Positions 3,725 to 9,424 of a DNA stretch of 9,424 bases are shown one piece after another. The stretch lies in the IMG/VR virus record IMGVR_UViG_2671180846_000014. One strand, given 5' to 3'. The position numbers and the translations under genes were made by a program. The notes under the pieces were generated by a model. It saw only the letters and a list, made by a program, of their open reading frames with translations, did no database searches and was not told the origin of the DNA. Position 1 is the first letter of the stretch. Each line of letters opens with the position of its first letter. The DNA comes from a virus (lineage: Duplodnaviria > Heunggongvirae > Uroviricota > Caudoviricetes).

Positions 3725-4285
3725 TCAGACAAAACCGGCCGCCTTCCGGCGCTCATATTCCTGTTTCAGCAATTCAATTGGCGTTGGCCCTGGCGGGCGT
3801 TTGGGTGCTGCCAGTTGTCGCCGGACTGGCGGAACACTGAGGCCATTACCAACATGCTTTGCCCATTTCGTCAGCTGCCTTTCCACAAGCCGTTTTAACT
3901 CCCCTTCGGTCATCTGGCGCTCAATCCCCTTTGAACGCATCTCGAGGCAAATGTGGTACAGCACCGGCTGTGGCCACGGGTATTTATCACTCCCGTCGTA
4001 CCGCCAGGATTCATTCCTCCAGCGACGGTATTCCTCCATCACGGCATCCACCGTCAGGCCAAATGGATTTGCCCCGCTCTCCGAAATCAACGCCACAAAC
4101 TCAGCCAGATCCGGAGGCCACGTTTCACCCGCCCGGCAGCGGTCCATGCACCGACGGCAGATCTGCCGGATTTGCTGTTCAGTCATCGCGCCAATCTGAG
4201 CAATCCAGAGTTTCGACGGCGCAGCCCCGTTCTTCTGAGTCCAGCGGTTCGAATACACCTCCCCCATAAGCTCCCACAGCTTCCA
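3725..4285 (-). CDS. phage replication protein P-like (helicase loader); 5' end in or next to masked run
   Basis: C-terminal two-thirds aligns by eye with lambda P ([11 protein letters not shown]...[16 protein letters not shown]...[16 protein letters not shown]... versus lambda ENGITTMEQVN...FLPSPGQFVAWCREE...YPWKSNAHYWLVTNLY). Stop TGA at 3725-3727. True start is either the ATG at 4265-4267 (GGAG 4 nt upstream) or inside the N run 4286-4335; the track's 4381 start is a TTG. Confidence 0.65.
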
Positions 4286-5081
4286 NNNNNNNNNNNNNNN
4301 NNNNNNNNNNNNNNNNNNNNNNNNNNNNNNNNNNNGTGAAAACCTTCCCCTCCGCCATCCAGTAATCCCGGAATGCGGCAAGCTCAGCAGGTGTAAACTC
4401 AGGCTCAGGCAGAGCCATACCCCACACTGCTGCCCGCTGTCGAAAATCCGGCGACGGTTGCCAGACTCCAGTCATCGGAAATTTCCCGATCGGTTCGCTC
4501 AGGCCGTCCAGGTATTCAGGTTCGGCTGTCTGCAACGACGCGTCATTCAACTCACCGGTCGTAGCACTCTCGCGCATGCGCGCGTTATGTGTGGGGTTTA
4601 ATTCTTTATCTGTATCTGTATCTGTCGTGATTTGTCGTGACATATGCGTGACGCGTCGTGACTCATCGTGACAATCAGTGTTCTGCTTCCGCAGTCTTTC
4701 CCGCTCCCGCTGCGCTCTCTTGCGCTCTGCCGGGGATTTTGCGGTTTGCGAAACATTACCGTTATCCTCCTTCATCACCTGGCGTTTTTCCCATCCGGAA
4801 ATAAGATCACCATCCAGAACTCGCCCCTGCATTGCATGCAAAATTGAATCAATCACGTCTTCCGTCACATCAAGCGCACTTGCTAAATCTTCCGTCGTGA
4901 CATCAATGTGACCACGTAGTGACACGCCGTGACATGTCGTGACATTTCGTGACGCACTCACCAGAAGGTGGATATACACCGCCATCACTGTTGCGATTGG
5001 CTGTCCTGAGACCCTGGCAATGGTTCGCCATTTGGGATCATTTGGCATGTCATGCCACAATCTGAGCCAGGCATTAGCCAT
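4286..5081 (-). CDS. replication initiator candidate (O-like by position and embedded iterons); 3' end hidden by masked run
   Basis: ATG at 5079-5081 (MANAWLRLWHDMPNDPKWRTIA...) with GAGGTGA upstream; the track's extra MS comes from a GTG. Frame is open to the N run. Immediately precedes the P-like gene. Contains two phased GTGAC repeat arrays. Family (DUF1376/YdaU-like?) is not certain from memory. Confidence 0.55.
4607..4672. repeat. iteron-like array 1: (TATCTG)x3 followed by five CGTGA(C) repeats at 10-11 bp phasing
   Basis: CGTGA starts at 4626, 4636, 4647, 4657, 4667; TATCTG at 4607, 4613, 4619. Lies in frame inside the O-like CDS (encodes ...RRVTHMSRQITTDTDTD...). Confidence 0.6.
4896..4953. 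repeat. iteron-like array 2: six GTGAC repeats at 10-11 bp phasing
   Basis: GTGAC starts at 4897, 4908, 4919, 4929, 4939, 4949, same orientation as array 1. One inverted GTCAC at 4864-4868. Inside the O-like CDS N-terminal region. Confidence 0.6.
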
Positions 5082-5149
5082 ACTCACCTCATCTGATACC
5101 GAACTTTACCCTCGAACATCCGGAATAAATCCGGCATGAATATTGTTGG

Positions 5150-5893: not shown

Positions 5894-6541
5894 ATGATGG
5901 AAAGCCTTGGCATCAGGCTTAAGAGACTTAGAAAAGATAAGGGGCTGACCCAAGTAGAACTGGGTAAGCTTTCAGGCGTGACTGGGGTTACTATAGGGTA
6001 CTGGGAGAAAGATCTAAACGAACCAGGTAGCAAAGCTCTAAGTAAGTTAGCCCAGGCATTAGGAACTACTGAGTCCTATCTCCTATATGGAGTATCGTCT
6101 CCTGAATTATCTTTTGTACAAAGTACCTCAGGCACCAAGATCCCCTACCTTTCGTGGGGTGAGGCGATTTCTTTCCTAATCTTAAAAGGAGAGAAAACAA
6201 TGGGAAATGTCGATAGGATCACCACATTCTTTGATGTCGAGGAAGGTGATTTTGCCGTTTCAATGCCTGATGACACAATGCATAACCCATCAGGATCACC
6301 GAGTATCCCAGTTGGTGCTACTGTGATCCTAAGGCCAGGAGAAAGTTATAAAAATGGCAGCATCGTCGCTGTAATAGTTCCGGATCCGCTTAAAAATGAA
6401 CCATCTATGACTATAAAGAAATTAGTTATTGATGGGAAGCTTGTGTATTTAAGCCCTCTCAATCCACGCTATCAGTCATCCTTACTTACACCAGAGTGTA
6501 AAATTGTTGCCGTAGCAAAAGGTGTACAGTTCAACTTATAA
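5894..6541 (+). CDS. CI-like prophage repressor: XRE-type HTH plus LexA/S24 peptidase domain (215 aa)
   Basis: ATG at 5894 with AGGAG 5 nt upstream (the track start at 5882 is a TTG). N-terminal HTH LTQVELGKLSGVTGVTIGYWEK. C-terminus strongly resembles lambda CI (TIKKLVIDGKLVYLSPLNPRY versus lambda [21 protein letters not shown]), with a candidate Ser (AVSMPDD) / Lys (IKKL) dyad. Confidence 0.9.
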   Translation: MMESLGIRLKRLRKDKGLTQVELGKLSGVTGVTIGYWEKDLNEPGSKALSKLAQALGTTESYLLYGVSSPELSFVQSTSGTKIPYLSWGEAISFLILKGEKTMGNVDRITTFFDVEEGDFAVSMPDDTMHNPSGSPSIPVGATVILRPGESYKNGSIVAVIVPDPLKNEPSMTIKKLVIDGKLVYLSPLNPRYQSSLLTPECKIVAVAKGVQFNL

Positions 6542-7356: not shown

Positions 7357-7415
7357 ATTCTGGTGACATTTGGCGGTATCAGTTTTACTCCGTGACTGCT
7401 CTGCCGCCCTTTTTT
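7357..7415 (+). ncRNA. dicF: DicF small RNA homolog (ftsZ-targeting prophage sRNA) with its intrinsic terminator
   Basis: ATTCTGGTGACATTTGGCGGTATCAGTTTTACTCCGTGACTGCTCTGCCGCCCTTTTTT matches my recollection of E. coli DicF with 2 differences in the 5' part. Ends in a GC stem (GGCGG...CCGCC) plus T6. Lies upstream of the dicB-like gene as in the Qin dicB operon. Confidence 0.7.
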
Positions 7416-7419
7416 AAAA

Positions 7420-7569
7420 GTGAATTTTGTGATGCGGTGAATGCGGCTCAGCGCACGCGGAACAGTTAAAACCAAAAACAGTGTTATGGGTGGATTCTCT
7501 GTATCCGGCGTTAATTGTTAACTGGTTAACGTCACCTGGAGGCACCAGGCACCGCATCACAAAATTCAT
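7420..7569 (+). other. long-range inverted repeat (19/20 nt arms at 7420-7439 and 7550-7569) bracketing the dicF-dicB spacer; candidate RNase III processing stem
   Basis: GTGAATTTTGTGATGCGGTG (7420-7439) is the reverse complement of CACCGCATCACAAAATTCAT (7550-7569) except for one terminal base. Smaller hairpins lie between (CGTTAA...TTAACG, CCTGG...CCAGG). Confidence 0.5.
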
Positions 7570-7585
7570 TGTTGAGGACGCGATA

Positions 7586-7774
7586 ATGGAAAAGTTATCA
7601 TGTAATGCCAGCACGTCTGAACTTCGTTTCGAAATTGGCGTTATCACTGGAGACAAAACATTTATTGAAGACGCCATTAAGCAGAGAAAACTCGAGCAGG
7701 ACCTGTTAAATGAAGTATGCATTCCTTCAATGCTGGCTCGTCTGGACCTGCTGCAAAAAGGATATAAACAATGA
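7586..7774 (+). CDS. dicB: DicB-like cell-division inhibitor (62 aa), copy 1
   Basis: ATG at 7586 (track ORF 7481..7774 trimmed). MEKLSCNASTSELRFEIGVITGDKTFIEDAIKQRKLEQDLLNEVCIPSMLARLDLLQKGYKQ resembles K-12 DicB as recalled (...NVNTSEGCFEIGV...FTEDAI...RK...LL...SMLARL...). Stop overlaps the ydfD-like start (ATGA). Confidence 0.8.
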   Translation: MEKLSCNASTSELRFEIGVITGDKTFIEDAIKQRKLEQDLLNEVCIPSMLARLDLLQKGYKQ

Positions 7775-7962
7775 ATACAACATTTGCACTCGTTCTGACA
7801 GTTTATCTTGTTTCCGGCGAATCTCTTGAGCTGGTGACTGGCTTATACGGTTCAATGAAAGAATGCATGGCTGCAGCAGCAGAACAAAAAATTCCCGGTA
7901 ACTGTTATCCGGTAGATAAAACTACTCACACTAATAATAACGAAATACCGGCAGGACTTTAA
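7771..7962 (+). CDS. ydfD: YdfD-like small membrane/lysis protein (63 aa), copy 1
   Basis: ATG at 7771; hydrophobic N-terminus FALVLTVYLVSG; C-terminal EQKIPGNCYPVDK...NNEIPAGL resembles Qin YdfD as recalled. Translationally coupled to the dicB-like gene. Confidence 0.75.
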   Translation: MNTTFALVLTVYLVSGESLELVTGLYGSMKECMAAAAEQKIPGNCYPVDKTTHTNNNEIPAGL

Positions 7963-8055
7963 AACAGCACCGTAATTAATATCCGGTTTCATTTTTATAT
8001 GCCAGCAATGGCAGGGATTTGTTCACCCTTAAATCTGTAATGAGGTTAAAACAAA

Positions 8056-8092
8056 ATGAGTAAAGTCTTTATTTGCGCCGCCATTCCGGACG
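8056..8092 (+). pseudogene. ydfE-like 5' fragment (12 codons, MSKVFICAAIPD) ending at masked run
   Basis: Identical to the first 37 nt of the ydfE-like gene at 9132. The track fuses it in frame through the N run to the type-2 dicB paralog, which is probably an artefact of the masked junction. Confidence 0.4.
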
Positions 8093-8142
8093 NNNNNNNN
8101 NNNNNNNNNNNNNNNNNNNNNNNNNNNNNNNNNNNNNNNNNN

Positions 8143-8313
8143 AACGTTAATACGTCTGAAGGTTGTTTTGATATTGGTGTTCTGCTCAGTAACCGGGAGT
8201 TTACGGAAGATGCCATTAAGATGAGAAAATATGAACCTTATCTTCTCAATGATAATTCCATACTTTCCAGAATTGCCCTTCTTGAACTTGGTATTATCGG
8301 AGAACAGCAGTGA
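8143..8313 (+). CDS. DicB paralog (diverged, type 2); 5' end hidden in masked run
   Basis: Visible part NVNTSEGCFDIGVLLSNREFTEDAIKMRKYEPYLLNDNSILSRIALLELGIIGEQQ, stop TGA at 8311-8313. Shares the NVNTSEGCF-IGV and FTEDAI-RK motifs with DicB but differs from copy 1 across much of its length. Confidence 0.6.
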   Translation, partial: NVNTSEGCFDIGVLLSNREFTEDAIKMRKYEPYLLNDNSILSRIALLELGIIGEQQ

Positions 8314-8498
8314 CTTCAGCATTTGCACTGGTGATGACCGTTTTTCTTATAACGGGTGAGCCACAAAATGTGATTACCGGAATTTATGACAGTAAGTCAT
8401 CCTGCATTCAGGTAAGGGACGAACAAAAAATCCCCGGTGAATGCCTCCCGTTAAAAAAAGTATCGCTGAACCTGAATAACGAAATACCGGCTGGATAA
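8310..8498 (+). CDS. YdfD paralog (diverged, type 2; 62 aa)
   Basis: GTG start at 8310 overlapping the upstream stop (GTGA). MTSAFALVMTVFLITGEPQNVITGIYDSKSSCIQVRDEQKIPGECLPLKKVSLNLNNEIPAG is diverged from copy 1 but shares the hydrophobic N-terminus and the EQKIPG...NNEIPAG C-terminus. Confidence 0.6.
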   Translation: MTSAFALVMTVFLITGEPQNVITGIYDSKSSCIQVRDEQKIPGECLPLKKVSLNLNNEIPAG

Positions 8499-8661
8499 CC
8501 CGCCAGCCATATTAACGCCATACCAACGGATTAAAAATGCCAGCAATGGCAGGGATTCGTTCACCCTGAAATCTGTAATNNNNNNNNNNNNNNNNNNNNN
8601 NNNNNNNNNNNNNNNNNNNNNNNNNNNNNGCATCACAAAATTCATTGTTGAGGACGCGATA

Positions 8662-8850
8662 ATGGAAAAGTTATCATGTAATGCCAGCACGTCTGAACTT
8701 CGTTTCGAAATTGGCGTTATCACTGGAGACAAAACATTTATTGAAGACGCCATTAAGCAGAGAAAACTCGAGCAGGACCTGTTAAATGAAGTATGCATTC
8801 CTTCAATGCTGGCTCGTCTGGACCTGCTGCAAAAAGGATATAAACAATGA
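8662..8850 (+). CDS. dicB: DicB-like cell-division inhibitor (62 aa), second type-1 copy
   Basis: Identical translation to 7586..7774; lies within direct-repeat copy C. Confidence 0.8.
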   Translation: MEKLSCNASTSELRFEIGVITGDKTFIEDAIKQRKLEQDLLNEVCIPSMLARLDLLQKGYKQ

Positions 8851-9038
8851 ATACAACATTTGCACTCGTTCTGACAGTTTATCTTGTTTCCGGCGAATCT
8901 CTTGAGCTGGTGACTGGCTTATACGGTTCAATGAAAGAATGCATGGCTGCAGCAGCAGAACAAAAAATTCCCGGTAACTGTTATCCGGTAGATAAAACTA
9001 CTCACACTAATAATAACGAAATACCGGCAGGACTTTAA
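8847..9038 (+). CDS. ydfD: YdfD-like small membrane/lysis protein (63 aa), second type-1 copy
   Basis: Identical translation to 7771..7962. Confidence 0.75.
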   Translation: MNTTFALVLTVYLVSGESLELVTGLYGSMKECMAAAAEQKIPGNCYPVDKTTHTNNNEIPAGL

Positions 9039-9131
9039 AACAGCACCGTAATTAATATCCGGTTTCATTTTTATATGCCAGCAATGGCAGGGATTTGTTC
9101 ACCCTTAAATCTGTAATGAGGTTAAAACAAA

Positions 9132-9424
9132 ATGAGTAAAGTCTTTATTTGCGCCGCCATTCCGGACGAACAGGCAATAAAAGAAGAGGGCGCAGTTGCT
9201 GTAGCCACTGCCATTGAAGCCGGTGATGAACGCCGCGCCCGTGCCAAATTTACCTGGCAATTCCTGGAGCAATATCCTGCTGCTCAGGACTGCGCTTATA
9301 AATTTCTTGTCTGCGAAGATAAACCTGGCATGCCCCGCCCTGCTATCGACTCCTGGGATACCGAATATATGCAGGAAAACCGCTGGGATGAGGAATCCGC
9401 TTCCTTTATTCCGGTCGAACCAGA
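9132..9424 (+). CDS. YdfE-like protein by position, partial (runs off window end)
   Basis: ATG at 9132; open frame to the window end (MSKVFICAAIPDEQAIKEEGAVAVATAIEAGDERRARAKFTWQFLEQYPAAQDCAYKFLVCEDKPGMPRPAIDSWDTEYMQENRWDEESASFIPVEP...). Follows dicB-ydfD as ydfE does in Qin. Sequence family not verified. Confidence 0.55.
   Translation, partial: MSKVFICAAIPDEQAIKEEGAVAVATAIEAGDERRARAKFTWQFLEQYPAAQDCAYKFLVCEDKPGMPRPAIDSWDTEYMQENRWDEESASFIPVEP

Follow-up and report, generated by a model that had tools for sequence, protein, structure and literature searches.

The stretch of DNA analysed here (the window; 9,424 nt) belongs to a virus of the Caudoviricetes (IMG/VR record IMGVR_UViG_2671180846_000014) and carries on its plus strand a DicF small RNA (sRNA), a spacer, the cell-division inhibitor gene dicB and a ydfD-like gene (Table 1). 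The DicF sequence matches the Rfam family RF00039 over the whole model (positions 1-52 of 52), scoring 77 bits at 7358-7409 where the gathering score is 48, and the U6 tract (7410-7415) lies directly 3' of the match. DicB is a protein of 62 aa that matches Pfam PF05358 with 131.8 bits, and the downstream gene, which matches Pfam PF07358, overlaps the end of dicB by 4 nt. An earlier note on this DNA had placed the start of dicB 170 nt past the DicF terminator, and this distance was confirmed, since the U tract ends at 7415 and the ATG lies at 7586. The note had also concluded that DicF ends at its own terminator and that dicB is expressed by read-through; transcripts of both types have been reported in Escherichia coli K-12, namely ydfABC-dicF, ending at the DicF terminator, and a longer one that continues through dicB-ydfD (PMC10448788).

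Table 1. Positions of the dicF-dicB features in the window and of related elements
Feature	Position	Strand	Basis or remark
DicF sRNA, terminator hairpin and U6 tract	7358-7415	+	Rfam RF00039; U tract read from the sequence
Left (5') arm of the long closing helix	7416-7439	+	Inverted repeat, fold, covariation, RNAalifold
STnc100-like multi-hairpin core	7440-7549	+	Rfam RF02076 match, fold, RNAalifold
Right (3') arm of the long closing helix	7550-7573	+	Inverted repeat, fold, covariation
dicB Shine-Dalgarno sequence (GAGG, 7574-7577) and coding sequence	7574-7774	+	ATG at 7586; stop codon ends at 7774
ydfD-like DUF1482 gene	7771-7962	+	Pfam PF07358, 69.2 bits; 4-nt overlap with the end of dicB
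Repeated last 20 nt of the right arm	8630-8649	+	Start of the third dicB unit; without left arm or core
Module with 13-bp closing stem	L125, L159, L175 and related loci, e.g. L125:1426-1587	- (L125)	Module upstream of a DicF-like element

Organization of the dicB region and other features of the window

An in-frame upstream open reading frame (7481-7774; GTG start, 97 aa) passes through the right arm and on into dicB. Since the region shows covariation as RNA, translation of this frame is improbable. The frame recalls the K-12 dicB paper of Cam et al. from 1988, the title of which reportedly speaks of an "in-phase internal start".

The segment 7554-8092 is repeated at 8630-9168 with 100% identity over 539 nt. 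As the earlier note had observed, the right arm thus lies inside a duplicated unit, and its last 20 nt (from 7554) recur before the third dicB copy. The note had left open whether the left arm was duplicated as well, this being hidden by the mask at 8580-8629. The mask spans 50 nt, whereas 114 nt lie between the end of the left arm and the first duplicated base that is visible. There is thus no room for a colinear copy of left arm and core, and the left arm was not copied with the unit. In all, three tandem dicB-DUF1482 (ydfD-like) units lie within 7554-9168, and both junctions are masked. The middle unit (~8143-8579), whose dicB is of the common METLLPNVNTSE type, is a divergent allele (about 63% identity by crude global alignment); the open reading frame 8056-8313 reads as the first 12 codons of an exonuclease gene fused in frame to dicB. 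The unit spacing of 539 and 537 nt would fit a simple tandem array in which a short 5' fragment of the exonuclease gene abuts the right arm. The three-unit arrangement was not found in complete E. coli genomes, in viral contigs searched for the junction pattern, or in an exact-protein look-up of the second ydfD allele.

Three further observations concern other parts of the window. A match to the sok antitoxin RNA on the minus strand (732-921, partly masked) scores 59.7, where the gathering score is 59, and would imply a hok/sok-type toxin-antitoxin locus; a weak isrK-like match at 681-762 (27 bits) stays below threshold. Repeats similar to GTCGTGAC, with a spacing of about 10 nt, form two clusters (4624-4672 and 4894-4953; 12 matches where 4.8 are expected) inside a minus-strand open reading frame of 302 aa (4179-5087), and resemble the iterons of a replication origin located in the gene of a replication initiator.

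A long closing helix maintained in the plus-strand RNA

The two arms that bracket the spacer form an inverted repeat of 24 nt, with 92% complementarity and 110 nt between the arms. The 19/20 stem described by the earlier note (7420-7439 with 7550-7569) is exact, consisting of 19 Watson-Crick pairs and one G-U pair (G7420-U7569). The pair A7419-U7570 extends it to a continuous helix of 21 bp (7419-7439/7550-7570; 20 Watson-Crick pairs and one G-U), beyond which lie the mismatch A7418/G7571 and two A-U pairs. RNase III needs a continuous double-stranded RNA helix of about two turns (~20-22 bp), and the 21 consecutive pairs provide this length. This is the sole 24-nt inverted repeat with at most two mismatches within 300 nt in the whole 9.4-kb window, and about 3e-5 such repeats would be expected by chance according to an analytic estimate. 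Furthermore, the 22-mer of the left arm matches only at the two arm sites in the window, and none of 200 shuffles gave a match.

Folding of the spacer, which the earlier note had named as a check, bore out the long stem in both the minimum free energy (MFE) and the centroid structures, also with DicF attached. The segment 7416-7575 folds with -65.6 kcal/mol compared with a shuffle mean of -41.1 (z = -6.0; 0 of 200 shuffles), and the duplex of the two arms comprises 26 pairs at -34.9 kcal/mol. Within the core, RNAalifold gives the hairpins P1 (7442-7445/7452-7455) and P2 (7458-7461/7504-7507), and the window's own fold gives P3 (7507-7516/7524-7533) and P4 (7535-7539/7545-7549); position 7507 appears in both P2 and P3, a one-base overlap between the two methods.

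An intrinsic terminator or attenuator was also considered for the repeat and was rejected. The right arm is followed by GUUGAGGACGCG without a U tract, and a terminator scan was empty at this place; likewise, GUUGAGGAC comes after the right arm, and the left arm is clear of the DicF terminator stem.

Homologues were retrieved with two core motifs inside the loop, leaving the arms free to vary. The scans covered viral contigs and one genome per species, and matches in unrelated metagenome-assembled genomes that lacked the second core motif were left out as chance hits of a 19-base pattern. The remainder was reduced to 40 homologues with distinct arm pairs from E. coli, Shigella, Citrobacter, Klebsiella, Raoultella and viral contigs, and aligned. 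With the helix taken from the window, 86.8% of the cells were paired across the 40 homologues, and changes on both sides were found in 17 of the 24 stem pairs; the same was true of six of the ten pairs in P3 and of one pair in P4. The covariation score for the stem, P3 and P4 together was 0.353, a value reached by none of 500 shuffles, and it fell to 0.07-0.11 when the partner was slid by 1-3 columns. RNAalifold, given only the alignment, recovered the same 21-bp closing helix de novo. Whole arms were found to be swapped with pairing kept, as in CAACAGACCUUGCAAUGCAGUG in L029, AACAGGCUUUGCAAUGCGGUG in Raoultella and AGCAGGCUUUAAGGUGCGGUG in the Citrobacter contig L123, and in most lineages the arm duplexes measure 20-26 bp despite their differing sequences. 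The arms therefore covary strongly across the homologues, whereas the earlier note had held that a lack of covariation would speak against its reading. The stem is selected as RNA.

The repeat could instead be a palindrome acting at the DNA level, such as an operator, a recombination site or the ends of a mobile element, or a chance match. In favor of this, the right arm lies at or near a duplication boundary. The substitutions argue otherwise: cells with G-U exceed those with A-C by 64 to 16 in the stem and by 107 to 6 in P3, and this excess shows that pairing is kept in the RNA of one strand, the plus strand that carries dicF and dicB, and not in a DNA palindrome. The compensatory changes at 17 of 24 pairs also speak against this reading, and the chance expectation estimated above is minute; moreover, a promoter scan of the spacer found nothing above chance, neither a promoter for dicB nor another promoter-like site. 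We regard a DNA-level or fortuitous origin of the repeat as extremely improbable.

The K-12 Qin prophage site and RNase III processing

An RNase III site between dicF and dicB has been known in K-12 since 1990, when the cutting site was reportedly described by Faubladier, Cam and Bouche (J Mol Biol 212:461); the observation made in the window is thus correct and not new. In the K-12 Qin prophage, too, the site lies between the DicF terminator and dicB; identity amounts to 87% over 461 nt, the spacers are homologous, and the core and the loop length of 110 nt are shared. The arms differ at two positions, and both substitutions preserve the pairs, U-G and G-U in K-12 corresponding to C-G and G-C here. 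Apart from a U/A run at the helix base that is 2 nt longer in the window, arms and core align without gaps. The window differs from K-12 in its dicB allele (MEKLSCNASTSE...), in the two extra dicB-ydfD units downstream, and in a 125-nt tandem repeat upstream of DicF.

The suggestion of the earlier note that DicF is processed from the operon transcript in E. coli agrees with passages in two secondary sources, according to which the 72-nt DicF of K-12 is the RNase III product of the full-length read-through dicBF transcript (PMC5069750, PMC9438474). By alignment (MG1655 dicF annotation 1649382-1649434; end at L362:254-255; offset of 7176 to the window), the 3' end of this species maps to window positions 7430-7431, with an uncertainty of about 2-3 nt since the 72-nt figure comes from secondary sources. 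This point lies inside the left arm, 8-9 bp below the helix top and about 12 bp above its base. Furthermore, Gordon et al. (2017) list a site at 1649470, designated "intergenic dicF-dicB" and flagged as known (PMC5371410, Table S1), which corresponds to window position 7447, 8 nt to the inside of the K-12 left arm. It has 0 and 0 reads in the wild type versus 26 in the rnc deletion strain, so that the RNA-seq support amounts to 26 reads from a repressed operon (PMC5371410). Ragunathan (2023) treated RNase III solely at the upstream site, which forms the 5' end of the 190-nt species (PMC10448788). Taken together, the inference of the earlier note that the stem is an RNase III substrate is supported; processing is established for the K-12 homologue and would extend to the window by homology.

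Intercistronic and leader sites of RNase III, such as rpsO-pnp, rplL-rpoB, metY-nusA, the lambda N leader and sib, and those of the T7 early mRNAs, present a long imperfect helix in a polycistronic transcript that is cut on both strands, so that the RNAs upstream and downstream of it have separate fates. These sites are listed in a 2009 review, which also counts the dicF-dicB intergenic region among the classical substrates of the enzyme (PMC2777011). Unlike them, the helix described here encloses a conserved structured domain of 110 nt and no simple loop, and it directly adjoins an sRNA terminator.

We favor the reading, with a probability of roughly 80%, that the spacer represents the local version of the intercistronic element at which RNase III processes the dicF-dicB transcript in Qin-type lambdoid prophages. 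The structure, its significance, the covariation, the strand specificity and the homology to K-12 come from our analysis, and the dependence on RNase III from the K-12 literature. In transcripts that run past the DicF terminator, the 160-nt spacer would fold into a compact four-hairpin domain related to STnc100, closed by a helix of 21-26 bp that its first and last ~24 nt would form; folding would take place in the longer transcript once the right arm has been made. Its length is sufficient for RNase III, and the enzyme would cleave both strands of the helix some 9 bp below the top. Assuming the standard geometry of 2-nt 3' overhangs (PMC6212723), a cut after 7430 on the left would place the right cut near 7560/7561, and the two pairs between these predicted cuts include a G-C pair, in keeping with an in vivo rule on the pairs between cuts (PMC6212723). 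Three products would result: an upstream RNA with DicF, extended by a tail of 19 nt, at its 3' end, equivalent to the 72-nt species documented in K-12; a putative excised core of about 130 nt; and a predicted dicB-ydfD mRNA that would carry a 5'-monophosphate and about 25 nt of leader. In this way, DicF and the message for the division inhibitor would be uncoupled in their fates. That processing is coupled to the stability or translation of dicB, as the earlier note proposed, is speculation.

Two observations concern the region upstream of DicF. A perfect 10-bp inverted repeat (7034-7043/7087-7096) corresponds to the K-12 hairpin L002:1326-1338/1384-1396, the right arm of which, judged by length, contains the 5' end of the RNase III-dependent DicF species of 190 nt; DicF would then be flanked on both sides by RNase III hairpins. 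Between the upstream hairpin and DicF lies the tandem direct repeat with a period of 125 nt (7141-7215/7266-7340; 75 nt visible per copy, 95% identical), which is a single copy in K-12. The repeat would lengthen the "190-nt" DicF precursor made by RNase III by about 125 nt.

The STnc100-related core and its occurrence before kilR and other genes

The spacer matches the Rfam family STnc100 (RF02076) at 7423-7563 with 37.4 bits and E = 2.2e-5, short of the family's gathering score (47); the K-12 spacer, with 34.4 bits and E = 5e-5, also falls below it. This was the only STnc100-like match in the window, and no further Rfam family matched the spacer at E <= 1. The core shares with STnc100/PasD a GGUGAAU start, a GUUAACUGG hairpin, a UCACCNGGAGGCACCNGGCACC hairpin and a closing helix starting GGUG/CACC. 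Bona fide STnc100 copies differ in scoring 57-165 bits, in having closing helices of 6-9 bp rather than 21-26 bp, and in their location in the late region, next to phage tRNA genes, whereas the spacer is intercistronic in an early-left operon. They often form tandem arrays of 2-5 STnc100 units beside phage tRNA clusters (L010:2265-3380, L088:4349-5513, L022:342-1038 and L046:811-1488). A 2026 preprint ties STnc100 to the PasD sRNAs of pathogenic E. coli prophages; dicF and dicB are absent from it, and no link of the STnc100/PasD group to dicF was found in the literature searched. We class the spacer core as a diverged relative of STnc100 and not as a member of the family, because the Rfam scores lie below the gathering score with low E-values and blocks of the sequences align. 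It belongs with the STnc100/PasD group of prophage RNAs.

The motifs of the core are nearly invariant across genera. This strong sequence conservation suggests a function beyond presenting the helix, one that the processing model leaves unexplained. The helix may mainly be the closing stem of a trans-acting RNA, with the spacer as the precursor of an STnc100/PasD-like sRNA: RNase III would free an RNA of about 130 nt whose closing stem of about 9 bp would be like that of stand-alone STnc100. Such an origin is compatible with cleavage by RNase III and shifts its purpose from mRNA processing to the making of an sRNA. The E-values of the STnc100 match in the window and in K-12, the near-invariance of the core motifs and the short closing helices of bona fide copies are consistent with it. 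In addition, STnc100 copies are expressed, one being confirmed by Northern analysis in EDL933 (PMC5331693), and an Hfq-binding sRNA overlaps one STnc100 copy (PMC12711010). The K-12 reads at the core, very low in coverage, point in the opposite direction: the wild type gave 0 and the rnc deletion strain 26, the reverse of what a stable excised product should show; the match is under the gathering score, and no RNA species from the spacer was reported in the literature searched. We therefore consider it unlikely that the helix serves mainly in sRNA production. It is similarly doubtful that the dicBF operon encodes a second sRNA of about 130 nt and that one portable prophage RNA module exists in two forms. 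If this were true, the long-stem form would be cut out of early-left operons, where it precedes host-division inhibitors such as dicB and kilR, and the short-stem form would be the stand-alone or tandem copies in the late operon.

The long-stem module also occurs upstream of kilR (NCBIfam 161.6 bits; RefSeq annotation), the FtsZ inhibitor of the Rac prophage and, besides dicB, the other one known from prophages. In this class (L008:5777-5943; similar in L042, L109, L168 and L194), the right arm has a one-base bulge, and the module adjoins kilR directly and follows a DicF-like terminator element, which at L008 scores below the Rfam gathering score for DicF. The module was further found before a Rha/Ash-type regulator, a YdaE-like protein, and several small membrane proteins in Klebsiella, Raoultella and Citrobacter prophages. 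In the E. coli-type classes (dicB, kilR and Rha/Ash), it lies directly 3' of a DicF-type terminator. In one class, a module with a 13-bp closing stem stands immediately upstream of the DicF-like element (TGTGTGTAGTCTTGGCGG...; Table 1). A natural deletion variant on the minus strand of L186 (module start at 6357 of the reverse complement) has lost the middle hairpins and retains P1, the GGAGGCACC hairpin and the right arm.

These classes also bear on whether the helix hides the ribosome landing site of dicB and so controls translation directly, RNase III being inessential. In the window, the helix base reaches 7573, one position ahead of the GAGG Shine-Dalgarno sequence, and the MFE fold pairs U7411-A7417 with G7571-G7577, that is, the U tract with the Shine-Dalgarno sequence; the in-frame upstream reading frame also passes through the right arm. 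The pairing at the Shine-Dalgarno sequence is weak, however, consisting mostly of G-U pairs with one A-U. Moreover, in the kilR and other classes the Shine-Dalgarno sequence lies 5-45 nt beyond the helix and the helix length is still conserved. The feature maintained across the homologues is thus a length of about 22 bp, as RNase III needs, whereas the masking of a particular ribosome site is not maintained. Direct control of dicB translation by the helix thus seems quite improbable to us, and we retain RNase III processing as the preferred reading.

The helix is kept by compensatory change across at least five genera, which indicates that the processing step is under selection and is no accident of K-12. 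The window itself adds one further allele that retains the helix, and the value of the finding rests on the covariation, on the relationship with STnc100 and on the reappearance of the module before kilR. The presence of the same module before dicB and kilR suggests a shared handling of toxic division-inhibitor messages.
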